Below are positions 1,667 through 15,750 of a DNA stretch of 40,803 bases, piece by piece (the first letter of the stretch is position 1; every line of letters begins with the position of its first letter). Made by a program: the position numbers and the translations under genes. Source of the stretch: a virus (Duplodnaviria > Caudoviricetes); IMG/VR virus record IMGVR_UViG_3300048856_000136, positions 1 through 40,803 of that record; one strand, given 5' to 3'. The notes under the pieces were generated by a model, which was given only the letters and a program-made list of their open reading frames with translations, had not been told where the DNA came from and searched no databases.

Positions 1667-2203
1667 TTAATCAAGACGCATTGGCATGACAATAATTTTT
1701 GCGGTTTCCCATGGGTTCCTGATTTCAATCAGCGACCCTGTAGAGCTGCCATTAGGTTTGATGCGTATTGATTCGAATTTAGGGTTATAAAGCCGGGCAA
1801 CGCGCTCGACATCTGCCAGATATTTAGCGTTAAAACCAATCTCAGAAACTGGTTTGTTATCAGTAGGGATTACGCGTTTAACATCCGGGTATTTGCCATC
1901 AACCACTTCACAGAGCCCGAGGTTTTGACGAACACCAAATTCATCCAGATAAGTAACAACGCCTGATTCAGTGTCAAAAGTGGCTTTATCGAAACGAGTG
2001 AAGCGTGGGCCCTTAAGTCGAACAATAATGTTCTGTTCAAGCCCATCGGTTTGATGCTCACCGATAAATAAACGGTGACCATCGGTTGAATAAAGTTCTT
2101 TGCCAGGAGCAAAGCAGAAGCCCATCAGGTAATAACGTGGGTCGTTCTTTGCCTGAAAAAGCAAAGCAGATAACAAGGCTGGTTTCGTTAGCGTCAGTAG
2201 CAT
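1667..2203 (-). CDS. Truncated DNA polymerase III beta-clamp-like protein
   Basis: DPRYYLMG, STDGHRL, DGKYPDVKRVIP, IGFNAKYL and IIVMPMRL match DnaN domain 2/3 motifs. ATG at 2203 follows a GTGTGTGGAG RBS. Confidence 0.75.
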   Translation of the reverse strand: MLLTLTKPALLSALLFQAKNDPRYYLMGFCFAPGKELYSTDGHRLFIGEHQTDGLEQNIIVRLKGPRFTRFDKATFDTESGVVTYLDEFGVRQNLGLCEVVDGKYPDVKRVIPTDNKPVSEIGFNAKYLADVERVARLYNPKFESIRIKPNGSSTGSLIEIRNPWETAKIIVMPMRLD

Positions 2204-2340
2204 TAAAATTCTCCACACACGATTTTTAGTTGCATGAATCCCTTGCCATTGACGGCAATAAAAACTTATTGGATTCGTTTAAGTTGGCTGGTGGGCTACT
2301 GCAATAACCCACAGCCTGATTACTCCACACATGAAAGGTT

Positions 2341-2464
2341 GCTGCGGTGCCGGGTGCCTCCCGGTGCTCTGGTCAGACTGACAAACTCCAGAGCGGAAAC
2401 TCTTAGACTTTTAGCATGCGCTGTTTGACAGTCTTCCGCGTGCGCTAGCCGCATTCACCACAAC
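2341..2464 (-). ncRNA. C4/CI-like structured phage RNA (copy 1) in the pL transcript
   Basis: Closing stem TTGTGGTG/CACCGCAG, AAT plus a small hairpin, and 3' hairpin CCGGGAGGCACCCGG. Architecture resembles P1 C4/P4 CI-type RNAs. Confidence 0.55.
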
Positions 2465-2535
2465 GAGAAGGACACTTACTCCACGTCTCTAAAGCGTTCG
2501 AAAACACCCGCTTTGCAAATGTCCTTATCGTTGTG
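2459..2535 (-). other. Long inverted repeat, candidate RNase III processing stem
   Basis: CACAACGAGAAGGACA (2459-2474) pairs with TGTCCTTATCGTTGTG (2520-2535), one mismatch. Confidence 0.45.
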
Positions 2536-2593
2536 AAAAAGGGTGGTTAAACCAAACTCCCGGAGTAACCGCTAACACAGCAATTCAGTACTC

Positions 2594-2749
2594 TTAAAAC
2601 GCTGGTCCGCGAACCACGTTTTCAACATCACACTGCACACTCACCACACCGGCATCACCACAACAGACAACATCAGCATCTGGGAATAGCCTCAAAAAGG
2701 TAATCAGGTCCCTGACCGTTGTGTTCGACATGTTTTTAATCATCTTCAC
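2594..2749 (-). CDS. Small 51-aa protein, first gene of the pL operon (below ORF-track cutoff)
   Basis: GTG start after GAGGG RBS: MKMIKNMSNTTVRDLITFLRLFPDADVVCCGDAGVVSVQCDVENVVRGPAF*. Confidence 0.55.
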   Translation of the reverse strand: MKMIKNMSNTTVRDLITFLRLFPDADVVCCGDAGVVSVQCDVENVVRGPAF

Positions 2750-2849
2750 ACTACTGCCCTCACACCACTGCAACTGCTTTAGCGAATCATCCCGGCCTTC
2801 ATATGCCCTGGGCGGCTACTTCGTGGGCGTCCTGCCTGTTCGCTGCTGA

Positions 2850-2919
2850 TGTCTTCATTATTGCCGGAAGTGATAAATCAGTCAACACCGCTAGAGATAT
2901 TTTATATCCAGCGGTGCTT
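2850..2919 (-). promoter_or_regulatory. pL promoter with OL operators
   Basis: Minus strand TTGACT-17-AATAAT, transcript starting ATCAGCAG as in lambda pL. 17-bp operator-like sites at 2859-2875, 2883-2899 (TATCTCTAGCGGTGTTG, near lambda OL2) and 2903-2919. Confidence 0.85.
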
Positions 2920-3020
2920 ATGTTGTTGATTGATCTGATATTAAAAATTCTTTGAACGCTAAATTATTGAATTGAGCATATGGTAAGGTGGTTTTTGTGT
3001 GTTTCTTGAGCGGCAGATTC

Positions 3021-3224
3021 ATGAGCAAACAATCAGATGAGCTTTACGATGAGATGTGCAGGGTTGTCGGTGACGTGGTTTTCACGCTTCACGATTTTGG
3101 GGTTGAGTCGAAGCAGATAGTGATAGCAGATGCACTTAGAGCGGCGCTGGCTCATAAAGGAGAGGAAAGAACAGAGTTGATGATAAAGGCAATAGAAGCT
3201 CAAGTGCGCGTGCTGGATCGGTAG
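3021..3224 (+). CDS. fumD: FumD/YdhZ (DUF2767)-like small protein, copy 1
   Basis: DELYDEMCRVVGDVV...KQIVIADALRAALA resembles E. coli YdhZ/FumD. ATG 3021 preferred. Confidence 0.7.
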   Translation: MSKQSDELYDEMCRVVGDVVFTLHDFGVESKQIVIADALRAALAHKGEERTELMIKAIEAQVRVLDR

Positions 3225-3229
3225 GCATG

Positions 3230-3252
3230 AAAAACCCGGCGTGGTGGCCGGG
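3230..3252 (-). terminator. Intrinsic terminator closing the cI operon
   Basis: CCCGGC/GCCGGG stem with an A-run on the + strand, between convergent genes. Confidence 0.7.
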
Positions 3253-3260
3253 CTGCAAGG

Positions 3261-3740
3261 CTATTTGGAGGCTAGCAACTCAAAAAGCTTAACCACGCCA
3301 AAGAGTGCACCAGGTATTGTTAGCACCCAAAAGACGATGGCTATTTTTTGATCCTTCAACTTCCCATCAAACACAGATGTATGATTATCTAGCGATAATG
3401 AAATTTTTTGTGACTGTAGTGCCAGTTCGGAAGCTAACTTAGACGATTGCAACTCCAGAGCTGATGCAAGTTTTGCTGATTGAAGCTCTAACGCTCCAGT
3501 TAGCTTTGAGCTTTGCAAGTCAATTTTTGAGTCTAAACGGATAAGGCTTTCATTCAGGCGTATAAGCGTAGAGTCGATTGCTTCGACTTTCTTTTCAAGC
3601 TTGTCTAACCGCTCAGTCATGTTGCCTCCACCGCCATTTCCGCCCCCGCGTTCTAATGATCGCTCATTATCTATTCCATGTCCATCAGCAAGGTCTTCAG
3701 GTGATGTCGCGCTTACAAGACGCATATGATCTTTAGCCAT
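3261..3740 (-). CDS. Coiled-coil protein with C-terminal TM helix (rexB position)
   Basis: Gly linker GGGNGGGGNM, four 11-aa repeats (xLQSxKLxxxL) and a hydrophobic C-terminus. Overlaps the upstream gene. Confidence 0.75.
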   Translation of the reverse strand: MAKDHMRLVSATSPEDLADGHGIDNERSLERGGGNGGGGNMTERLDKLEKKVEAIDSTLIRLNESLIRLDSKIDLQSSKLTGALELQSAKLASALELQSSKLASELALQSQKISLSLDNHTSVFDGKLKDQKIAIVFWVLTIPGALFGVVKLFELLASK

Positions 3741-4158
3741 TATCAGCCTCCATGCCTAAGACATTGAATAGAACATCCATGCTATCAACGGGTGCTGTAG
3801 GTTCGCCCAATATGTCTAAAAGCTCACATCTGAATCGATGCGTGCCATTGAATGTTGGGTTAAAGAAATAGCTAGCAGTAAGAAAAGAAGATCGTCTTAT
3901 CGGGTCAATATGGTCTCCAGGAATTGCATCCATGGATGATGAAATGGAAACCTCTTCGTTATGTGGATTGAAAAGCTTAAGGTTAACAAAATAAGGAGAT
4001 CCGGCCTTGAGCTCCAAGAAAGAAATGCCCATGCTCATTGCAATGATGCCGTCATCTCTTACAGTAAAGTTCAATGTAGGGGACCTTGCCCCCTCTAAAT
4101 TAAATTTTGCAGGGAAGATAAATGCGATTCTCCCGGAAGCATTTGTTATCTCGCTCAT
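3733..4158 (-). CDS. Hypothetical beta-rich protein (rexA position)
   Basis: 141-aa AT-richer ORF immediately downstream of cI. Confidence 0.7.
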   Translation of the reverse strand: MSEITNASGRIAFIFPAKFNLEGARSPTLNFTVRDDGIIAMSMGISFLELKAGSPYFVNLKLFNPHNEEVSISSSMDAIPGDHIDPIRRSSFLTASYFFNPTFNGTHRFRCELLDILGEPTAPVDSMDVLFNVLGMEADNG

Positions 4159-4184
4159 TCAATCATGCCCCAATACTAAACAAC

Positions 4185-4898
4185 TCACCCAAACGTCTCT
4201 TCCGGCCACTGAGCCTTAACCACTTTACCTATGATGCGGCAGCTATGATCGCAGTCCAGAATTCTATAGGACGGATTGAGCGGTACCAGATAGCTGACCC
4301 CTGCATCCTTCTCATACTTTTTGAAAGTCACTTCAGAGTCAGCATTCGCTGATGCCACACAGAAGTCGCCAGTCTCGACCGGTTCTGCCGGGTCGATAAG
4401 AATCAGCATCCCTTCAGGGAAGCTTGGTCGAACACCCTGTGGCGCAGTCATTGAGTGACCTTTGACTTCAAGCCAGAAGGCTTTGTCACTGGCCTTCTTG
4501 GTTGTCGGAACCCACGCCTTAGCATCTCTGGAGGTAAAACTACCAACCTCAGAAAAGTCACCAGCCTGGACATAGGTGAACAGGGGATACTCATAGTGAT
4601 TCGGGCGAGAGTTTTCCTCGCCAATCGACTGATACATGTCAGCGATCTCAGCTGCGATTCTCGGACTGAACTCACCAACATTAACTTTCAAAAATCTTGC
4701 TAATGCTGAGGCGTTACTGGGATTTAGAGCGTTTACGCCATTCAACAATGATGCAACAGCTGACTGACCTACGCCTAAGGCGTCCGCCACTGACTCTTGG
4801 GAAATGCCCAATTCAGATTTTTTGCGCTCATAGATTGATTTCAGTCTCTGCGCGTCTTCGATTTGCTCAGTAGTGAGCGGCTTTTTCTTTGCATTCAT
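4185..4898 (-). CDS. cI: Lambda-like CI repressor (HTH + S24 peptidase)
   Basis: [27 protein letters not shown] cleavage site, GHSM, TFKK and C-terminal WPEETFG as in lambda CI. Confidence 0.97.
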
Positions 4899-4980
4899 AC
4901 GTGAAATTTATCACCGCATGGGATAAATGACTAACACCGCACGTGTTGACTATTTTACCTCTAGCGGTGATAATTAAGCC
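4899..4980. promoter_or_regulatory. OR3-OR2-OR1 with pR and leaderless pRM
   Basis: OR3 TATCACCGCATGGGATA 4909-4925, OR2 TAACACCGCACGTGTTG 4932-4948, OR1 TACCTCTAGCGGTGATA 4956-4972. pR TTGACT-17-GATAAT. pRM -10 abuts the cI ATG. Confidence 0.93.
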
Positions 4981-4999
4981 TGTCCATTAGGAGATGATT

Positions 5000-5221
5000 A
5001 TGAGCCAGAGAATAAAACTCAAAGATTATGTAGATCAGTTTGGTCAGACAAAGGCAGCTACCGATTTAGGCGTATACCAAAGCGCGATATTCAAAGCGAT
5101 TTCTCTAAAGCGTGACATCACTGTGATTCTCCATGAGGACGGGACAATTTCAGCGGAAGAAGTAAAGCCGTTCCCTGCAAATCGTAAGTGTGATCACAAG
5201 TCTATATCGACAGCTTTTTAA
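5000..5221 (+). CDS. cro: Lambda-like Cro
   Basis: [43 protein letters not shown]. Confidence 0.95.
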
Positions 5222-5249
5222 TTTTAACCACAGGCAAAAGGGCTTAACC

Positions 5250-5798
5250 GTGGATCAGAAGCACTGGCAGGTAGAGAAGCAACCAGCATGGCTGGTGGCA
5301 GCAATCAAGAAGACTATTTCAAGTCTTCCGGGTGGGTATGCAGAAGCAGCTGAATGGCTGGGCGTGACTGAGGATGCACTGTTCAACCGCCTGCGTACCA
5401 ATGGCGATCAGATTTTCCCAATGGGCTGGGCGATGGTTCTGCAGCAGGCAAGCGGCACCAAGTACATCGCTAATGCCGTATCCCGCCAGTCTAACAGCGT
5501 CAACGTTCCGCTGGTGGACATTGAGGATGTTGATAACGCGGACATCAATCAGCGACTGATGGAGTCAGTTGAGTGGATTGGCAAGCACTCTGCTTACATT
5601 CGCAAAGCAACCGCCGATGGCGTGATTGATGCAAATGAGCGTGAGCAGATTGAAGAGAACAGCTATCAGGTCATGGCTAAGTGGCAGGAGCATCTGACGC
5701 TGCTGTATCGCGTTTTTTGCGCGCCAGAAAAGGTGAACGCCGCAGGATTGCAGCCCGCGACGTTCGATGCGACTAAATCAACGTGTGTGGAGAACTAA
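5250..5798 (+). CDS. ymfL: YmfL-family (CII-position) regulator
   Basis: HWQVEKQPAWLV..LPGGYAEAAEWLGVTEDALFNRLR..GDQIFP matches e14 YmfL. GTG start inferred. Confidence 0.85.
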   Translation: MDQKHWQVEKQPAWLVAAIKKTISSLPGGYAEAAEWLGVTEDALFNRLRTNGDQIFPMGWAMVLQQASGTKYIANAVSRQSNSVNVPLVDIEDVDNADINQRLMESVEWIGKHSAYIRKATADGVIDANEREQIEENSYQVMAKWQEHLTLLYRVFCAPEKVNAAGLQPATFDATKSTCVEN

Positions 5799-5802
5799 TC
5801 GC

Positions 5803-6153
5803 GTGATCAATTTAACCAGATTATCAGGGTTACCGCAATTCCGTTGCCTTCCCTCGACGGGTGGGCGCTTTAGCGGTGAGCTGCTGCGGTATGTGCTCAA
5901 TGTACTAGGCGTCAGCGAAGAAGTTAACCACGGCTTTGTTGACTGGGCTGTGGGCGATGCTAACCAGCGAATGAAGGCGACTAAATGCGAGAGCTTGACC
6001 GTATCTTCCGAGATAAGCGCGGCATCCCTGTGCGGGTCATCCGCTGGGAGCCAGAGAACGACAGGGTTATCTACCTGCGCGACAACTACGAACATGGCGA
6101 GTGCTTCAGCTCTCTTGAACGGTTTAAGCAATATTTCAGGGAGGTCGAAGTAA
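5803..6153 (+). CDS. ymfM: YmfM-like protein (e14 division inhibitor homolog)
   Basis: GTG after GTGTGTGGAG RBS. YVLNV..HGFVDWAVGD resembles YmfM, and it is syntenic after ymfL. Confidence 0.6.
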   Translation: MINLTRLSGLPQFRCLPSTGGRFSGELLRYVLNVLGVSEEVNHGFVDWAVGDANQRMKATKCESLTVSSEISAASLCGSSAGSQRTTGLSTCATTTNMASASALLNGLSNISGRSK

Positions 6154-6179
6154 TTCATGAGCCTACTTCTGAAAGTTAA
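5985..6179 (+). CDS. DUF4222-family protein, overlapping ymfM in another frame
   Basis: FRDKRGIPVRVIRWEPENDRVIYLR..ECFSSLERF typical of this pre-replication gene. Confidence 0.75.
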   Translation: MRELDRIFRDKRGIPVRVIRWEPENDRVIYLRDNYEHGECFSSLERFKQYFREVEVIHEPTSES

Positions 6180-7038
6180 ACCATTGGTGATAAGCCCAGA
6201 GCTTGCGCAGCGCATTGGTCTGAATGAGGCGATTGTGCTGCAGCAGATTTGCTATTGGCTGGAAGACACCACATCCGGCGTCGAATATGACGGCAAGCGC
6301 TGGGTTTATAACACTATCGAAGATTGGACTAATCAGTTCCCATTCTGGTCATCGGACACCGTTAAACGCGCTCTGACATCACTTAAAAAACGCGACTTAA
6401 TTTTTGTCGAGCAATTGAAAAAAGCACAGCATGATCGGACTAATTATTACGCAATTAACCACGCAAACCCTCTGCTGGCCGATGAGGGCAAATTGCCCTC
6501 ATCGAAGGATGCAAGTTGCACTCATCGAACAGGGCAATCTGCACCAATCGATCAGGGCAATTTAAACTCATCGATGGGGGCAAATTGCCCTCGTCTTACA
6601 GAGAATACAACAGAGATTACTACAGAGATTACATCAACCCCTTCTTGTCAGGTTGCCTCGCAACCCGACCGGGAAGTTTTGATCAATGACTCTGCTAAAA
6701 AGGTTCTGACTCACCTGAACCAAACAACCGGGATTAAATTCCAATTTAGCCGTTCATCACTGGAAAATATCCGGGGCCGGCTGGCGGAAGGCTACAAACC
6801 TGCCGAGCTGATGCTGGTGGTTGATTACAAGCATGAGCACTGGCGCAACACAGAGCAGGCTCAATACCTTCGCCCGGCAACGTTGTTCATTCCCAAAAAC
6901 TTCCCTGGCTATCTCCTGTCAGCGACCAAATGGGATAAGTCAGGCCGACCACCATGCGTGAACGGCAAATGGCAGCGCGATGTAATGGCTGTATCCGAAG
7001 TCGATAAAGAAACGCCTCATGGCTTTCGTGGAGCATAA
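6157..7038 (+). CDS. Phage replication initiator with conserved phage C-terminal domain
   Basis: IGLNEAIVLQQI..WVYNT..FPFWS N-terminus, QYLRPATLF C-terminal domain, internal iterons. Confidence 0.88.
   Translation: MSLLLKVKPLVISPELAQRIGLNEAIVLQQICYWLEDTTSGVEYDGKRWVYNTIEDWTNQFPFWSSDTVKRALTSLKKRDLIFVEQLKKAQHDRTNYYAINHANPLLADEGKLPSSKDASCTHRTGQSAPIDQGNLNSSMGANCPRLTENTTEITTEITSTPSCQVASQPDREVLINDSAKKVLTHLNQTTGIKFQFSRSSLENIRGRLAEGYKPAELMLVVDYKHEHWRNTEQAQYLRPATLFIPKNFPGYLLSATKWDKSGRPPCVNGKWQRDVMAVSEVDKETPHGFRGA
6481..6632 (+). repeat. Replication origin: five tandem 23-bp palindromic iterons plus three 12-bp repeats
   Basis: GATGAGGGCAAATTGCCCTCATC-like units start at 6481, 6504, 6527, 6550 and 6573. 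ACAGAGA(A/T)TAC(A/T) x3 follows. Confidence 0.85.
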
Positions 7039-7043
7039 CAGGA

Positions 7044-7481
7044 GTGAACATGATGAATATTGAAGCAATGATTGTGACGCACCTGTTAGCCAACCCGGGG
7101 CAGACAACGGCGCAGCTGGCTAAGTCTACCGGCATCAGTCGTATTCAGGTGAGCAAGTGTATTGGCACCCTGACACTTATCGGCGATGTCTTTCGCGATA
7201 ATCAGTGCCGTTATTTTGTGTCTGAGCCAGCCAGTGAAGGTGATGACAGCTTTTCATTACTGAGCAACAAGGCTTATCGCCTTGAAGAAAAGAAGCTCTG
7301 GCGTCGTGCTGCGGAAGTCTGGCTGCGTGCAATGGATTCAACCCGCAAGGAGGGGCTGCGTCAAAAGGCCGTTCTGCGCCGTACGCACTGCATCGTGATG
7401 GGTTCGGTACGCTGCGAACGCTACGCCGGAATAAACAGCGGTCGGGTCAGTGAGAGCAATCTTCGCGAGGTTATCAGATGA
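7044..7481 (+). CDS. PerC-family transcriptional regulator
   Basis: N-terminal HTH plus KAYRLEEKKLWRRAAEVWLRAMD PerC motif. Confidence 0.8.
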   Translation: MNMMNIEAMIVTHLLANPGQTTAQLAKSTGISRIQVSKCIGTLTLIGDVFRDNQCRYFVSEPASEGDDSFSLLSNKAYRLEEKKLWRRAAEVWLRAMDSTRKEGLRQKAVLRRTHCIVMGSVRCERYAGINSGRVSESNLREVIR

Positions 7482-7600
7482 ATAACCGGTTGATGCACCA
7501 CTACGAACTGAACGTGGTTTTTTACCAAAGCATTCGCACTGCGGCACTGATGATTACCGCGCTGATTATTGTCCTGACATGGGAGCTGAAAACAGCATGA
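7478..7600 (+). CDS. 40-aa single-TM peptide (not in ORF track)
   Basis: MNNRLMHHYELNVVFYQSIRTAALMITALIIVLTWELKTA*. ATGA-coupled at both ends, GAGG RBS. Confidence 0.65.
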   Translation: MNNRLMHHYELNVVFYQSIRTAALMITALIIVLTWELKTA

Positions 7601-8910
7601 GCACACTGGCAAAGATTTACGACGACAAGAAGAATACTGATACCAACATCACTACCCGCAAAACTTATCTGCTGGGCGTTGATGAACTCTACGTCGAAAA
7701 TAATTACAACATCCGGGAGATTGACCAGACCCACGTCGAGGAATTCCGCGACGCCTTTATCGCTGGTGAGCACGTGCCTCCGCTGGCTGTTAAGGTTACG
7801 GAGAAGGGCATCAAGATTATCGACGGCCATCACCGATACTACGGCGCGAAGCTGGCTCAGGCAGCAGAGTATGAACTGCGCCTTGAGTGCAAGGACTTCG
7901 TGGGCAGTGAGGCTGACAGCGTGGCGTTCATGGTCACCAGTAGTCAGGGTCGCGCTTTGTTGCCGCTTGAACGTGCAGCTGCATATCAGCGCCTGATTAA
8001 TCAGGGGTTAGAGCCATCCGAAATCGCCACCAAGGTTAAGCGTTCGATCACCGACGTTGAGCAACACCTGCAACTACTGACCGTTGGCGAACCGCTGATT
8101 GAAATGGTTAAGGCTGGAGAAGTGGCCGCAACCACAGCTATTGCCATGCAGCGTGAACACGGCGTGAAAGCATCAACCGTTGCTCAGGAACAGATGCAAA
8201 AGGCCAAAGCCGCAGGTAAGAAGAAGCTGACTAAGGCCGACGCTATGCCACAGTTCAGCGCAGCCAAAGCACGCCGCCTGTTAGAACTGCTCAGCGTGTC
8301 CGATATGGATAACGTAGAGGATGGTGCGTTTGCTCTTTATGTCGGAAAAGATCGCCGCGAAGAAGTTTTGGCAATCATCAATGAGTACCGCGAAGGGATG
8401 CCGCAGGCGTTCAAAGAAGCGGAGCAGCCGGAGCAGGATTGCGGCGATGAACTACCGCTGACCCGTCAGGATATCCTTGAGCAGAGCGGTGTTGAAACAT
8501 GGGCTTGTGCCATTGCCTGCTTCGGACTCAAACCCGAATACAGCTTCACAGAGTCTAAATACGCGCACGTATGGGCCTCAGATTCAGTCGAAGCGCCAGA
8601 AATGATGGTTGTACCAGCCGATACCATTAAAAAGGCTCTACGCCTCATTAAAGAGCATGAGGATAACCTAGAGCTGAAGCTCTGGATTGCTGACCAGTTC
8701 GAAGAGCCAGACAGTGAGGGTACCTATTTTCAACGCTTCTCATCGGTACTGATTGAAACCCGCCTGGATAAGCCGTGCACGGTTCAGGAATTCACCGCGC
8801 TGGTGGAGCAAACGGATCGTGAATGCTGGTCAAACATTCGCATGCTGCGTCAGGCAGTTCGTGAGGTAGCCGGTCAGATGACCATTCCAGATGTTGGGGA
8901 GGCGGTATGA
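7597..8910 (+). CDS. ParB/Srx-domain protein with C-terminal extension
   Basis: VPPLAV..IIDGHHRY ParB motif followed by an HTH. Confidence 0.8.
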   Translation: MSTLAKIYDDKKNTDTNITTRKTYLLGVDELYVENNYNIREIDQTHVEEFRDAFIAGEHVPPLAVKVTEKGIKIIDGHHRYYGAKLAQAAEYELRLECKDFVGSEADSVAFMVTSSQGRALLPLERAAAYQRLINQGLEPSEIATKVKRSITDVEQHLQLLTVGEPLIEMVKAGEVAATTAIAMQREHGVKASTVAQEQMQKAKAAGKKKLTKADAMPQFSAAKARRLLELLSVSDMDNVEDGAFALYVGKDRREEVLAIINEYREGMPQAFKEAEQPEQDCGDELPLTRQDILEQSGVETWACAIACFGLKPEYSFTESKYAHVWASDSVEAPEMMVVPADTIKKALRLIKEHEDNLELKLWIADQFEEPDSEGTYFQRFSSVLIETRLDKPCTVQEFTALVEQTDRECWSNIRMLRQAVREVAGQMTIPDVGEAV

Positions 8911-9146
8911 GCCGCTTCATTGCAGTAATCCATGGTTGGCATGTTCACAGCAATGGCTTCGATGTTCATCAGATTAACGCTACCGACAAACAAGAGGCCG
9001 CCGAAAAGGCGGCATTTCTGACAATGCAGCGCCAGGGAAAGTTTGACGAGTGCGCATATGTGCTGGTGGAGATTCAGCCGGAAGATGCCATAAAACAGCC
9101 TCGTAAACTCACCTGGCGTGAGCGCTTTACCGGGAGGGTGTCATGA
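8907..9146 (+). CDS. Hypothetical protein
   Basis: ATGA-coupled ORF, GGAGG RBS, LTWRERFTG tail common in phage small proteins. Confidence 0.7.
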   Translation: MSRFIAVIHGWHVHSNGFDVHQINATDKQEAAEKAAFLTMQRQGKFDECAYVLVEIQPEDAIKQPRKLTWRERFTGRVS

Positions 9147-9340
9147 GCAGCTATGAAACGTTAATTGGAGCCTTTGCATTCACTGCCATTTACTTTTTTG
9201 TAGCAGGCCTTGTGGCTGAGCATAGTTGTTCAAATAAATACATGGACATCAGCAGCCCGCTCCCCTCTCTTCTACGAGGGCTGGCTTGGCCGCTGGTGGC
9301 ATTTAAATATTTCGTGCTTATGTTATGGGGTGAACTGTGA
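9143..9340 (+). CDS. Small membrane protein
   Basis: Two hydrophobic segments, coupled at both ends. Confidence 0.65.
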   Translation: MSSYETLIGAFAFTAIYFFVAGLVAEHSCSNKYMDISSPLPSLLRGLAWPLVAFKYFVLMLWGEL

Positions 9341-9702
9341 AGTTAATCCTGCCGTTCCCGCCAAGCGTAAACGGCTACTGGCGGGCAACGAGTACAGGTA
9401 TGAAAATTAGCGCCTCCGGGCGCTCTTTTCGCATCAATGCCTTTGCCGCCGCTATGGAACAGCTAAAGCGCGCACCTCAGCCCATTACAGTGAACGTTGA
9501 AGTTAACGTGCTGCTGTTCCCGCCAGACAAGCGGAACCGTGACCTTGATAACTACCAGAAAGCGCTGTTCGACAGCCTGACACATGCAGGCGTATGGGTG
9601 GATGACAGGGAGATAAAGCGGTTCTCTGTAGAGTGGGGCGAGCAGACCAAAAAGGGCAAAGCACAGGTAACTATCAAGCCATTTGTAGCAGTGGCCGTAT
9701 GA
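9337..9702 (+). CDS. rusA: RusA Holliday junction resolvase
   Basis: LPFPPSVNGYWR, PPDKRNRDLDN..KALFDSL, GVWVDD. Confidence 0.93.
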   Translation: MKLILPFPPSVNGYWRATSTGMKISASGRSFRINAFAAAMEQLKRAPQPITVNVEVNVLLFPPDKRNRDLDNYQKALFDSLTHAGVWVDDREIKRFSVEWGEQTKKGKAQVTIKPFVAVAV

Positions 9703-9709
9703 GGTCCGC

Positions 9710-9743
9710 ACCTGGTTACATGAACAGTAAAAGTGGTTATAGT
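9710..9743 (+). promoter_or_regulatory. LexA (SOS) box overlapping a probable antirepressor promoter
   Basis: ACCTGGTTACATGAACAGTA (CTG-N10-CAG) at 9710-9729 and -10 TATAGT at 9738-9743. Confidence 0.6.
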
Positions 9744-9849
9744 AAAAGGGCTTACTGGCGAATTGCAGTCGCCACAGGCAAAGGTTGGTCCCGTTCATTT
9801 GCAGATGATGGGGCGGGACCGGTTAAAAACAGTGTGTGGAGAAGAGAAC

Positions 9850-10734
9850 ATGCCAAATCAGGCAATGGGCGTAGCTACGCCTGCATCAAACTCAGTAATC
9901 CTTTCATCAAGCACCTCATTAAGCGTGCCTGTCGTCATGTACCGAGAGCAGCGGGTGATCACTACTGACCTTCTCGCTAAAGGTTATGGTGCCGATTCAA
10001 AAAGTATTCACATGAACCTCATGAGAAATGGCACTCGCTTCGAAGAGGGGCGTCACTATTTCATGCTTAAGGGCGACCAGCTCCGTGACTTTAAGAACCT
10101 ACCCACTGTTAGTGGTGTGGTTGATAAGCGCACAAGTCAGCTTATTCTCTGGACCGAGAAGGGCGCAGCCCGAATGTCAAAGATCGTCGATACGGACGAG
10201 GCATGGTCATTCTACGAAAAGCTTGAGGAAAGCTACTTCAGCCTGCGTGAAGTCCATGGCGTGATGCTGCCTGATATCTCTGACCCGATTAAGCTGGCTC
10301 GTGCATGGGCTGATGCAATGGAAGCCAAACAACAGGCAGAAGTGCTGACTCACCGACAGGCCCAGTATATCGATCACCTTGAGAACCTGTTCAGTGATGG
10401 CCTGTCACCCGTTCAGTTCTGCAAGCGCCTGAACGGTGTCAATACCAGCAAGATAAGCGCCTGGCTTCAGGATGCAAACTGGCTCTATGACGATAACCCT
10501 AATGGCAATCATGCGCAGTGGCGTGTTCGTTCTCAGGCCCGTGATAAATACCTGACAGAGAAAAGCAGCAAGATTAACCCAACGTCAGCGGCAAGCTTCA
10601 CTACTCACCAGCCGGTACTGCTTCGTGATGGCGCTGTCTGGCTTTACCGGAAGTACCTCAAAGGCCAGATGCCAATGAAAAAGTCATGGAATGGGGAGTA
10701 CACCCACGACAAAGAGCTGGCAGGTAACGCATGA
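9850..10734 (+). CDS. Phage antirepressor (ORF6N domain + Ant/KilAC-type C-terminus)
   Basis: RVITTDLLAKGYG..RFEEGRHYF..LILWTEKGAARMSKIVDTDEAW, then LARAWAD. ATG 9850 follows GTGTGTGGAG. Confidence 0.85.
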   Translation: MPNQAMGVATPASNSVILSSSTSLSVPVVMYREQRVITTDLLAKGYGADSKSIHMNLMRNGTRFEEGRHYFMLKGDQLRDFKNLPTVSGVVDKRTSQLILWTEKGAARMSKIVDTDEAWSFYEKLEESYFSLREVHGVMLPDISDPIKLARAWADAMEAKQQAEVLTHRQAQYIDHLENLFSDGLSPVQFCKRLNGVNTSKISAWLQDANWLYDDNPNGNHAQWRVRSQARDKYLTEKSSKINPTSAASFTTHQPVLLRDGAVWLYRKYLKGQMPMKKSWNGEYTHDKELAGNA

Positions 10735-11747
10735 GAGCACTGCTTACACCTGAAATCGCACCGCGTACAGGGATTGTGCTGCTTAAGCCAGGCTCAGACT
10801 TGCTTCACCTGTTCCGTAACCGCGTTCTGGTCTGCACACCGACACCTGACATGGAAGACCTGCCATCCGGTCGCATCAATGACGGCACACAGCCATTGCT
10901 GGACGAAACCTCGTTAGAGCCTTTCTTTAGCCATGAACGCGTAATTAAAGCTGCTGGTGGGATGAATGCACTAGCGGCTTTCGTCCGTACGTTTGAGTGT
11001 TGTCAGCTGCATGATGCGAAAACATGGCATCACCACGAATATACGCTGCTTGAGACTGAAATCGGCCTGGTGTCATTGTGTTATAGCCATGATAATGAAC
11101 TCCGGGAAAACGGCATTCCGCTGTCAGTTGAAAGCATAGCTAAAAGCAATATGGCGCTATGGATCATCAGAACCGCCAGTTATGAACTGGGCCTGACGGG
11201 TGAGCATCATTTAACGCTGCCTGAACTGTGCTGGTGGGCATCCCTGAATGACGTAATCGACCTGATACCGGAGGCACCGGCAAGGCGCGTTCTCCGCATG
11301 CCAAAGGACAAAGCAGGCACCGGCACGCTCAAAGAGTCTTTCATCGCACCAGAGCGACGTGCAACCGAAGTAATTCAGGATGCTGCGCTGGTGGTCAAAA
11401 AGATAATCAGCCTTCACGCCGATCCTGAGTCGCCGGAATCATTCATGAAACGCCCCAGGCGTAAGCGCTGGGAAAGTACGACGTATACGCGGTGGGTTAA
11501 GTCACAGAAGTGCGCATGCTGCGGCACGCAGGCAGACGACCCGCATCACATCATCGGACACGGGCAGGGAGGAATGGGTACCAAGGCGCATGATTTATTT
11601 GTGATACCGCTATGCAGAGCGCATCACGATGAACTGCACCGGGATATGAAAGCGTTTGAAGAAAAATTTGGCAGTCAGATTGAACTGCTGTTCAGGTTCC
11701 TCGATCACGCGATTGCAGTCGGTGTGATTGGGACAGACAAAAAATAA
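10731..11747 (+). CDS. DUF968/YdfU-family protein (C-terminal HNH-like Zn motif)
   Basis: MRALLTPEIA start and CACCG..ADDPHHIIGHGQGGMGTKAHDLFVIPLCRAHH. Confidence 0.88.
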   Translation: MRALLTPEIAPRTGIVLLKPGSDLLHLFRNRVLVCTPTPDMEDLPSGRINDGTQPLLDETSLEPFFSHERVIKAAGGMNALAAFVRTFECCQLHDAKTWHHHEYTLLETEIGLVSLCYSHDNELRENGIPLSVESIAKSNMALWIIRTASYELGLTGEHHLTLPELCWWASLNDVIDLIPEAPARRVLRMPKDKAGTGTLKESFIAPERRATEVIQDAALVVKKIISLHADPESPESFMKRPRRKRWESTTYTRWVKSQKCACCGTQADDPHHIIGHGQGGMGTKAHDLFVIPLCRAHHDELHRDMKAFEEKFGSQIELLFRFLDHAIAVGVIGTDKK

Positions 11748-11768
11748 AGTGTGTGGAGAGGATTAACT

Positions 11769-12185
11769 ATGCGTGACATGTCACAGGTATTAGAGCGTTG
11801 GGGTGTATGGGCAGCAAGCGGCAAGACGAACGTTGGCTATCCACGTATTGCTGCGGGGCTTTCACGGTTACTTCCAGCCAGCCGGGCCGGTAAGCCTTCC
11901 TGCTGCGATGATGACGGTATGTTCATCAACGAGGCCATGATACGGCTCTGTAAGAGCGATGAGCACCTTTGTGCACTGGTTGAGTGGTACTACATCGACA
12001 GACTGCCGTTACGGGCACTGGAAAAGAAATGCGGGGTCTCTTACAACACGGTTTCCCTGCGTATTCAGAAAGCAGAAAGCTTTATTGATGGTTGTCTCAG
12101 TGCGCTGAATATCACCCTTGAAATGGATCGTGAGTGCAAAAAAGAAAATATCGTCACGCCATTGATGAAAAGGGTTGTGTCATGA
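11769..12185 (+). CDS. Q: Late antiterminator Q
   Basis: MRDMSQVLERWGVWA..SCCDDDG..AESFIDGCL. Located before pR' and the lysis genes. Confidence 0.9.
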   Translation: MRDMSQVLERWGVWAASGKTNVGYPRIAAGLSRLLPASRAGKPSCCDDDGMFINEAMIRLCKSDEHLCALVEWYYIDRLPLRALEKKCGVSYNTVSLRIQKAESFIDGCLSALNITLEMDRECKKENIVTPLMKRVVS

Positions 12186-12212
12186 CAAAACCGGCTTTAA
12201 TCTGCTATGAGT
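12175..12212 (+). promoter_or_regulatory. Late promoter pR'
   Basis: TTGTGT-17-TAATCT at the end of Q, followed by a -10-like pause element TATGAG. Confidence 0.6.
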
Positions 12213-12241
12213 TGTCACTACGCACTGACACATAACATTCG

Positions 12242-12269
12242 AAACCTCGCCTATCGGCGGGGTTTTTTT
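12242..12269 (+). terminator. tR' terminator
   Basis: CCTCGCC/GGCGGGG stem followed by T7. Confidence 0.85.
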
Positions 12270-12333
12270 ATGCCTCAATGTTTTCAGAATTTGTCAGGAG
12301 TTACTGAAAATAAATTTATGTTAATTTTTTTCA

Positions 12334-12455
12334 GTTGCTGCTAATCCCCCTAAGCGGCGGGGTGTAAATGGTCTTCATAGCTAACGCTGTGGGTAATCTT
12401 GCACAAGCCATATTGATCATTGTGTGGCTTACCGGGAGGCACCCGGGGCGGCAAC
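12334..12455 (+). ncRNA. C4/CI-like structured RNA (copy 2)
   Basis: GTTGCTGC/GCGGCAAC closing stem, AATCCCC..GGGG hairpin, and the same CCGGGAGGCACCCGG hairpin as copy 1. Confidence 0.55.
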
Positions 12456-12646
12456 TTTAACTCAGCTATGCCCTCTGAATTTTCATAATCATGGGAATTT
12501 AAGGCATGGCTGAGTTAAGCAAACTTAATTTTAATCTTTCCTAAAAGATGATTTGAACCCTGTTGCCGATGGGCAAGGTAGTTACCGCTATAGCGTCAGG
12601 TTATTTTTTCGGAAAGATGGAAAGCAGAAGTTTGTTCAGGAAAATT

Positions 12647-12716
12647 TACGGGCAGCAGGACTTGAACCTGCATCTGCAACCTGTTGGTTGTAGTAATACC
12701 TTTATACCACGCCCGT
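12647..12716 (-). pseudogene. tRNA-like element / pseudo-tRNA
   Basis: Acceptor ACGGGCG/TGCCCGT and perfect T arm GCAGG-TTCAAGT-CCTGC. Aberrant 6-nt anticodon loop, no CCA. Confidence 0.6.
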
Positions 12717-12758
12717 ATTGTTACAAATATCACGTAACGAAAACCCACCTTTATTTCA

Positions 12759-12926
12759 TTAACGATACAGCCAGCTTAGATTAATTTTAACAATAGAGGC
12801 TGGTTTTAATGGCGCTCTGCATCGCCCGCATATTGCTCCATGTCTGGTTCGGTTCGCTTTGCTGTAAGTGGAAAAGATGAATATTTTGCATCCGCACCCC
12901 TGGCAGCGGAGTTCGACCTGATTCAT
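12759..12926 (-). CDS. 55-aa zinc-ribbon protein (moron, not in ORF track)
   Basis: GGAGG RBS. MNQVELRCQGCGCKIF...GAICGRCRAPL...LYR* with two CxxC pairs. Confidence 0.7.
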   Translation of the reverse strand: MNQVELRCQGCGCKIFIFSTYSKANRTRHGAICGRCRAPLKPASIVKINLSWLYR

Positions 12927-13083
12927 AGACCCTCCGCCTGAGTCGTGTTACATGAAGAACACTAAGCATGGCAGGTATATCTGAGGCAGCAAGCTTAAGC
13001 CGTAACCTAAGTCAAATTTCTCGCCTTCCTTATTGCAGGTGAAATAAGCATTAAAGGTTCATATCTTTGGGTTCAAGAGTTGC

Positions 13084-13183
13084 AAAAAAAATCCCGCGCT
13101 CTACAGGGTGGGTGAGAGGTGGCGGGAAAAGAGTTCAAGTTTCGTTTCATAAGTCATCCTCTGAGATGACAGACCTACTTTAG
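13084..13183 (-). ncRNA. Candidate sRNA unit
   Basis: -10 CTAAAGT, 5' hairpin GTCATC-TCAGAG-GATGAC, terminator TCCCGC..GCGGGA + T8. Confidence 0.4.
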
Positions 13184-13243
13184 TAGGCTAGAGATATATC
13201 TTTTCGCAAATAATGCTAGTTAATTCAGCATAGTAAAATTCAC

Positions 13244-13269
13244 AAAGGCTCACTTCGGTGGGCCTTTTT
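13244..13269 (+). terminator. Terminator upstream of the holin
   Basis: AGGCTCAC-TTCG-GTGGGCCT followed by a T run. Confidence 0.8.
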
Positions 13270-13375
13270 CGTTTTTGCGCACGCCAAACAGTCTCCACAC
13301 ACACTTTTGACACCGTGGCGTTGCGCAACTTTTATAAGACTACAAACAGCACCGACCGTTATCACGGAGGTGACC

Positions 13376-13624
13376 ATGAGTATCGATATGAGCAAACTTG
13401 CATCTGGCGTAGCCTACGGCGCGTCTGCCGGAACGGTGGCCAACGGGTTGCTCACCCGATTAAGCCCCGATGAGTGGAGTGCTGTTGGTGTTATCGCCGG
13501 TATCGTTGTCGCGTTACTGACATTCGCTATCAATTTTTACTTCAAACGCAAAGTCTCTCTGGCGCAGATAAAGGCGCTGGAAGAACGCGGCTACATACCG
13601 TCTGAAAAACTCGGTGAGGAATAA
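13376..13624 (+). CDS. S: Phage 21-type pinholin, probable dual start (M1/M5)
   Basis: MSIDMSKLASGVAYGASAG..LSPDEWSAVGVIAGI..INFYFK. GGAGG RBS. Confidence 0.9.
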   Translation: MSIDMSKLASGVAYGASAGTVANGLLTRLSPDEWSAVGVIAGIVVALLTFAINFYFKRKVSLAQIKALEERGYIPSEKLGEE

Positions 13625-14821: not shown

Positions 14822-14858
14822 TCATCACAAGGCGCATTTACTAGTATGCCTGATGATG

Positions 14859-14955: not shown

Positions 14956-15074
14956 AGCATAAGCGGCTGCTTTTTTTATGCGATTAAGAATTCTCCGACA
15001 AGGGATACGGTTAGCCACGCTTTGAAGCGTCGCGGAGCTGGTATAATCGCACCTCAATAAAAAAGAGGTGGTTT

Positions 15075-15605: not shown

Positions 15606-15750
15606 CACAGGCCGCCTTTCAGGGCGGTTTTATTTTGTTCTGAAAACTGCATTCACTGAGTTCAATTTTCAGCATAAACACAATGAATCATCGGCTGGTG
15701 GTCTCACCATTGCCGAGGGTTAAACACATCCAACTAGCAGGAAACTCTGA

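Follow-up and report, generated by a model that had tools for sequence, protein, structure and literature searches.

A shared two-part tag at early-gene ribosome-binding sites of a lambdoid phage family and putative late RNAs that complement it

The DNA examined here (IMG/VR record IMGVR_UViG_3300048856_000136, 40,803 nt, the whole of which is referred to as the window) is that of a lambdoid temperate phage with cI/cro, the CII-like gene ymfL, a replication gene, RusA, an antirepressor, DUF968, the antiterminator gene Q, lysis genes and HK97-type head genes. Its YmfL shares 96.7% identity with the Pantoea phage AH07 protein and 58% with the SfV one, so that the host is probably Pantoea. The subject of this work is a two-part tag on four of its genes, consisting of a hairpin with a TTGCAG loop followed by a common ribosome-binding site (RBS), together with a hairpin ahead of the holin gene, termed type B, whose loop is complementary to the RBS half of the tag. 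The features concerned are as follows.

1667..2203, minus strand: clamp-like gene, start at 2203 (PHROG 3007; PHROG 947 processivity factor, E 8e-9)
2210..2220, minus strand: tag 1, GTGTGTGGAGA, RBS of the clamp-like gene
2286..2316, minus strand: TTGCAG-loop hairpin of tag 1, with the strongest stem energy of 120 TGCAG sites
5735..5765, plus strand: TTGCAG-loop hairpin 2, in the tail of CII-like ymfL (5250-5798)
5783..5793, plus strand: tag 2, RBS of the ymfM-like gene
5803-6153, plus strand: ymfM-like gene (PHROG 1170, which we take to be ymfM)
9756-9774 and 9787-9820, plus strand: two TTGCAG-loop hairpins in the antirepressor leader
9832..9842, plus strand: tag 3, RBS of the ORF6N/KilAC antirepressor
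9850-10734, plus strand: ORF6N/KilAC antirepressor
11698..11733, plus strand: TTGCAG-loop hairpin 4 (core 11704-11728), in the tail of DUF968 (10731-11747)
11749..11759, plus strand: tag 4, RBS of antiterminator Q
11769-12185, plus strand: antiterminator Q
12241..12270, plus strand: terminator-like hairpin after Q, likely tR'
13244..13272, plus strand: terminator-like hairpin directly 5' of the anti-tag hairpin
13275..13328, plus strand: type B hairpin, candidate antisense RNA (z -3.5)
13376..13624, plus strand: holin

An earlier note on this DNA had described one decamer, GTGTGTGGAG, as the RBS of four genes, and it is found as described at 5783, 9832 and 11749 on the plus strand and at 2211-2220 on the minus strand, 7-10 nt ahead of the start codons. 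All four gene-start copies extend to the 11-mer GTGTGTGGAGA, which is the commonest 11-mer in the window; its five copies compare with a Markov expectation of 0.005-0.017, and any 11-mer reached five copies in only one of 40 simulations. The note's count of four was correct for the gene starts and missed a fifth copy, on the minus strand at 13293-13302. All five TTGCAG-loop hairpins fold where they had been placed, with TTGCAG in the loop, and two of them do lie within coding tails, those of ymfL and DUF968. Among the 120 TGCAG sites the stems of the five tagged hairpins rank 1, 2, 4, 9 and 17 in energy, and the presence of four TTGCAG within 90 nt of tags has p ~3e-6. Given these ranks and five copies against an expectation below 0.02, the tag is not a product of chance.

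Comparison with related phages, which we assigned to clade P (close relatives), clade E (a second clade) and clade K (a third), bore out the expectation that the loops would be conserved. TGCAG is invariant in 16 ymfM-site hairpins drawn from the three clades, SfV and a Sodalis prophage, while 8 of the 11 stem pairs are changed on both sides in the same 16, a value equalled in 0 of 500 shuffles. The ymfM hairpin folds in the window genome but is weak there by itself (z -0.08), and its support is the covariation. TGCAG in the ymfL tail reads Leu-Gln in the window and Cys-Ser in clade E; because the reading frame differs between clades, protein coding fails to explain its conservation. Bases 3' of the tag are not conserved, and the clamp slot is filled in relatives by unrelated genes behind the same tag. 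In relatives the tag also precedes the first pL gene and a small gene beside the integrase (annotated as excise in AH07; the site falls outside the window contig), and it is absent from some phages in which Q (L002-L014) or YmfL (Flotzy) is closely related. The proposal of a post-transcriptional regulon recognised by one RNA or protein therefore stands as regards a shared element, supported by stem covariation, by TGCAG kept across frames and by gene swaps behind the tag; recognition by a single RNA is less certain for the window genome, where a partner for the TTGCAG loop was not found.

The late leader upstream of the holin holds a counterpart to the RBS half of the tag. TCTCCACACAC (13292-13302, plus strand), which spans the 15-nt loop of the type B hairpin and its closing pair, is the exact complement of the tag. 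It is the only copy of the 11-mer away from a gene start, with a chance of about 3e-4 in the 1.2-kb late leader. When pairing with this loop was computed over 54 starts, the four tagged starts were the best (-20.8 to -21.3 kcal/mol; next, -16.9). The hairpin is constant before three unrelated holins and behind differing terminators and morons, and in an alignment of 20 sequences 96% of cells are paired, a single compensatory pair being accompanied by three G-U changes consistent with the plus strand.

Relatives have other late RNAs in place of type B. In clade E a homologous pre-holin hairpin carries a different loop, and an RNA termed type A lies right behind the first late terminator, directly behind the site equivalent to the 12241-12270 hairpin of the window. 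Type A is a three-way junction with UUCCACAC on its 5' side and a CUGCAA loop, so that both halves of the tag are complemented in antiparallel order. Type A sequences were fetched by a 3' anchor containing neither motif; the second loop has CUGCA in all 31 distinct sequences listed, 29 of which also have CCACAC, and in the stem under the CUGCA loop 4 of 4 pairs change on both sides with pairing kept. Part of clade K has type C after Rz, in which CUCCACU-CUGCAC forms one stretch and the cognate tags read GTGCAG...AGTGGAG. The tag complement is thus carried by three unrelated scaffolds (types A, B and C), and because one late RNA in relatives complements both tag halves, the TGCAG loop is likely to be a docking site for a guide RNA. 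BLAST of types A and C against annotated phages and E. coli genomes gave no match, nor did the type A model against 151 genomes of the order, in a run without a positive control. After Rz in the window itself, counterparts of the hairpin and of the downstream element on either side of type C in clade K are present at 14822-14858 and 14990-15030 (plus strand) without a guide stretch between them.

Tag bases differ along with these complements. The following counts were made with a stem filter that drops some true sites. Among distinct targets, TGCAG was preceded by T in 16 of the 17 whose complement is CUGCAA and by G in 13 of 14 with the type C CUGCAC; GTGGAG was preceded by A in 12 of 14 targets with CUCCACU (type C) and by T in 28 of 30 with type B. 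The next-but-one T of the tag was kept in 29 of 30 type B targets and in 5 of 17 of type A, in agreement with the greater length of the type B complement. Within type A, a sub-clade with CUGCAC has GTGCAG at its ymfM and antirepressor sites, and a sister sub-clade with CUGCAU has both GTGCAG and TTGCAG kinds of site. The deviant tag ATGGAG of L192 is accompanied by CTCCAT just 5' of its type A; G016 has the same deviant tag without the matching CTCCAT change. In a DUF968 tree type B forms one clade with L062 nested inside it, type A lies around B and type C is patchy in clade K; the tree covers a thinned set with labels taken from 7 kb downstream only, and L081 is thus mislabelled 'none'.

To relate tags to complements, 50 contigs were picked by protein rather than by motif, comprising 43 of the 56 tagged clade P and E loci (those omitted were mostly short) and 7 untagged phages, and their whole records were searched. 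Type B was intact in 31 of 35 clade P contigs, and type A was present in all 8 clade E contigs and in L062, a clade P member whose type B loop is changed by one base; three partial tagged contigs had neither type, and neither A nor B occurred in any of the 7 untagged phages. Among records at least 90% complete, an element was found in 19 of 19 tagged (clades P and E) versus 0 of 5 untagged. Contigs that span the late leader, some of them pattern-fetched loci, supplied 44 distinct pre-holin hairpins, of which 37 had B only, 6 had A and a changed loop, 1 had neither and 0 had both. Type C was present in 5 of 14 near-complete clade K records.

Partial sites and further control elements also lie in the window, at the following positions.

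2323..2330, minus strand: orphan GTGTGGAG, not followed by a start codon, 14 nt ahead of hairpin 1
2451..2548, minus strand: pL cassette with sense-strand TTTGCAAA (2512-2519) and ACGTGGAG (2479-2486), matched by the type A covariance model
2744..2785, minus strand: degenerate tag, a TTGCAG hairpin plus GTGTGAAG, before the first pL gene
9712..9743, plus strand: promoter-like site at 9715-9743, partly covered by a LexA-box-like palindrome at 9712-9727
11600..11630, plus strand: extra ATGCAG-loop hairpin inside DUF968, a loop that may be owed to Cys-Arg codons

The first pL gene (2594-2743, minus strand) encodes 49 aa of no family, and relatives such as L042 have a full tag before it. The match of the type A model to the pL leader (2548-2451, E 0.0055) covers the same stem scaffold with sense motifs; both TTTGCAAA and ACGTGGAG, which together span 2479-2519, are kept in 17 of the 19 distinct copies listed with this orientation, and the G-U variants seen are consistent with the pL strand. 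From this pattern the cassette at 2451-2548 is a possible decoy or further target. In the same region a hairpin lies directly after pL and ahead of the first gene (2780-2845, minus strand), a candidate cis antiterminator in a phage without an N-like gene. The antirepressor-DUF968-Q unit seems to have a promoter of its own, and the palindrome at 9712-9727, judged by the LexA-box consensus, would put the unit under SOS control. A LexA-like box occurs in 14 of 46 distinct related antirepressor leaders; the upstream DNA differs in the remainder.

On balance we consider it probable that a late RNA, acting as a putative antisense RNA, pairs with the tagged early messages and damps the antirepressor, Q and other early genes, much as c4 does but made late. 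This pairing is likely because the RBS half of the tag exactly complements the conserved pre-holin hairpin loop, and the combined comparisons favour an RNA over a protein as the partner of the tag. Since the hairpin sits behind two terminators, most type B RNA would be produced after Q has brought about antitermination of the late transcript. The guide would then accumulate, dock on the leaders and cover GGAG, so that the Shine-Dalgarno (SD) sequences of the antirepressor, Q, ymfM and the clamp slot, and in relatives that of the integrase-adjacent gene, would be masked. The outcome would be negative feedback closing the early phase, including the antirepressor-DUF968-Q unit. We put forward only tentatively the broader proposal that SfV/e14-type lambdoids share a late-to-early RNA feedback with a private two-part tag, Q-dependent guides gained at least three times on unrelated scaffolds, and 2451-2548 as a timing decoy. 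A guide might, in addition, cross-regulate tagged but guide-less prophages resident in the same cell.

A number of observations weigh against late antisense pairing. The orphan at 2323-2330 has no start codon, and such orphan tags in untranslated pL leaders are kept in all clades examined. A CUGCAA loop on a candidate trans RNA was neither found in the window genome nor conserved across the relatives that have type B. Once opened, the 3' arm of the type B hairpin could make five pairs with the TTGCAG loop, two of them wobbles, which is weak. Whole-leader cofolding with type B gave only -0.9 for the clamp leader, like the six controls (0 to -0.9), and moderate values for Q (-4.6), ymfM (-9.1) and ant (-9.8). 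One metatranscriptome, consisting of contigs at a flat depth of 3-6, was silent on strand and transcription. Because the pL cassette shares its stems yet holds sense motifs, the type A scaffold is generic, and part of the type A anti-SD (CAC) falls within a stem arm common to other cassettes. The covariation is also imperfect: Q sites remain TTGCAG in the CUGCAC sub-clade, and L292 has CUGCAC with TTGCAG targets. By our count the loop base covaried in about two independent events and the SD base in one, a small number because element types follow the clades of the DUF968 tree. No anti element was found by pattern, wobble pattern or covariance model in the other 9 of the 14 clade K genomes, which have 2-3 tags, none was found in SfV with its two or three loose tags, and L055, tagged and with its late leader covered, has neither type A nor type B. 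Lastly, the pre-holin slot holds several unrelated loops in L085, L205, L206, L229, L330 and L055, so that it must have some other role too; this suggests that the slot may take swappable guide cassettes with other targets.

Other partners for the TTGCAG loop were considered and set aside. The tRNA-like sequence at 12646-12717 has CTGCAA in a stem on the plus strand and was not seen in the late leaders of relatives; the ATCCC-CTGCAA-GGGAT hairpin of some relatives has a loop that is not conserved and is absent from the window; the element at 15635-15690 varies and is also found in untagged phages. T-box-like pairing with tRNA-Cys, suggested by UGC plus UGGA, or with tRNA-Ala was rejected, as there was no T-box match, the required structure (stem I and antiterminator) is missing and the bases 3' of the tag vary; the loop-tag spacing falls to 7-8 nt in clade K sites, contrary to a T-box spacing that spans a tRNA. 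As a sponge for GcvB the tag would have the wrong motif order for the GcvB seed.

A binding protein would explain several of the difficulties. The tag might be a nut boxB/boxC-like antitermination site or a translational operator to which the late complements were added later, and a variable stem under a fixed loop is typical of a protein site; the RBS half may also resemble boxC. The 9 clade K genomes, SfV and L055, tagged without an anti element, and the orphan tags of the pL leaders fit such a site, as does the lack of an N-like gene: none was matched among the pL proteins (PHROGs; three also Pfam), in a search that a diverged N might escape. We nevertheless regard it as unlikely, as no window protein was specific to tagged phages among the 28 genomes or loci compared, the tags of several operons are spaced from start codons as an SD would be and do not occur once per promoter, and their bases change along with the RNA complements. 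Five host-type genomes gave 14 matches to the tag pattern (backwards control, 5), of which one was a prophage site; the other 13 were without an evident stem, judged from the matched stretch alone, and gave no clear sign of a host regulon. The same RNA pairing could alternatively serve the lysogen, where terminator leak or an unseen promoter would yield a second, c4/CI-like immunity that keeps the antirepressor and Q silent. Antirepressors are repressed by c4, Sar and N15 CA alike (PMC5320573, PMC10732415), and pR' is active in lysogens (PMC7547250). Type A, moreover, lies directly behind the first late terminator. Yet types A and B are behind terminators and type C is behind Rz, and the plus strand has no promoter-like site scoring at least 9/12 in 12186-13300, which makes this version quite improbable.

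Two remaining explanations dispense with a trans-acting partner. Read-through transcription from pR or from the antirepressor promoter could yield an RNA in which the Q RBS folds onto the pre-holin loop in cis, giving a stem of the RNase III or anti-SD type and leaving the other tags as by-products. The Q tag and the loop could share one transcript, 1.5 kb apart, and the boxC stems of the lambda N leader and of rRNA are RNase III arms. However, the leftward operon, whose transcript cannot include the loop, retains the identical 11-mer, and 11 bp is generally short for RNase III; we think this very unlikely. It is hardly credible that the tag has no function, being a strong RBS copied between leaders by recombination and complemented by chance. 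GGAG is an ordinary SD core and lambdoid leaders do recombine, but the leaders are otherwise dissimilar, their stems differ and covary, TGCAG is kept across frames and three unrelated scaffolds hold the complement.

Among known systems, c4 is matured by RNase P and comes from the leader of the very operon that it regulates. Here the complement belongs to the late operon, 3' of Q, and not to a target-operon leader; the motifs are others, there are at least four targets in three transcription units, and the three scaffolds are interchangeable. The type A RNA of relatives resembles c4 as a three-stem junction of similar size, with one of its guides in the 5' flank; the window element is a single hairpin with the anti-SD half only. 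Identity with c4-a1b1, suggested by the earlier note, did not hold up: Rfam C4, c4-2 and c4-a1b1 gave no match at E <= 5 in the window, around type A (L085) or in type C (L072). The likeness to c4 (P1/P7), P4 CI and N15 CA lies in a two-part target of upstream element and RBS, the antirepressor included (PMC5320573, PMC10732415). In a promoter scan, which yields no more sites than shuffles, the nearest minus-strand promoter-like site for a Sar-type RNA across the antirepressor leader is at 10393, 550 nt off. P22 Sar has one target and is read from its opposite strand, whereas the complement here is 3.5 kb away and fits several leaders. The proposed mechanism does resemble those of Sar and CA, Sar being a small RNA that covers the antirepressor RBS (PMC10732415, PMC2629481). 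The SAS/ESAS elements of Cluster K mycobacteriophages likewise comprise a private RBS tag on non-structural genes, a second upstream element and a single reversed copy away from gene starts; the partner of SAS is described as unknown, and an RNA hairpin was decided against for the ESAS repeats (PMC3203893). Motif and host phylum differ, and here the stems covary and the reversed copy is a hairpin loop with stand-ins in relatives.

In lambda nut boxB/boxC and HK022 put, a hairpin and a GU-rich element likewise stand in early leaders; the present sites differ in lying on RBSs and in having a complement in a late RNA, and for put, a two-stem fold that binds the beta' zinc finger, Rfam returned no match in the window. 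The lambdoid small RNAs StxS, lambda 6S/LPR1-PreS, Pas and STnc100 are also cut from pR' or pL transcripts. Their targets are mainly host or toxin mRNAs (StxS, LPR1/PreS, Pas/STnc100; PMC7547250, 10.1101/2024.10.31.621285, 10.64898/2026.05.13.724894), DicF is another small RNA from lambdoid leaders with other targets (PMC5069750), and a shared phage early-gene tag for StxS/LPR1/Pas-type RNAs is not described in the accounts consulted. A literature search found no description of the tag, older SfV, ST64B and e14 papers and supplements lying largely outside its coverage.

Further elements were observed in the window and its relatives. Two STnc100-like RNAs are present, at 12305-12506 (plus strand, late leader, E 5e-9) and 2281-2495 (minus strand, pL leader, E 0.0014). 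A conserved structured element, CCCTGTTGCCG...GCGTCAGG, at 12556-12602 (plus strand) occurs in most clade P/E late leaders listed, and the tRNA-like 12646-12717 (minus strand), presumably resembling tRNA-Gly, is antisense to late transcription and has a defective anticodon arm. The late leaders of L028, L039, L046 and L104 have paired TATCCC-N6-GGGATA palindromes with variable centres after the first late terminator, which look like DNA-binding sites, and a palindromic element at 15635-15740 (plus strand) lies before the HNH-terminase region in tagged and untagged relatives. Clade K prophage ends (G004, G006, G008, G012, G013 and G022) carry tmRNA-like 3' ends, pointing to integration at ssrA. 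Downstream of cI, in the rex-equivalent position, two genes at 3261-4158 (minus strand; PHROG 6324, 5893) are absent from the 28 compared genomes or loci.

The textbook view of the lambda cascade assigns to Q the opening of the late genes and nothing more. If late RNAs do pair with the tagged messages, a feedback step would be added to that cascade in a large enterobacterial prophage family that includes SfV. The proposal is directly testable, as both partners and the bases to be swapped are named and the cultured Pantoea phage AH07 carries the same parts, and it would suggest how other orphan tags at gene starts, among them the SAS of Cluster K, might work.

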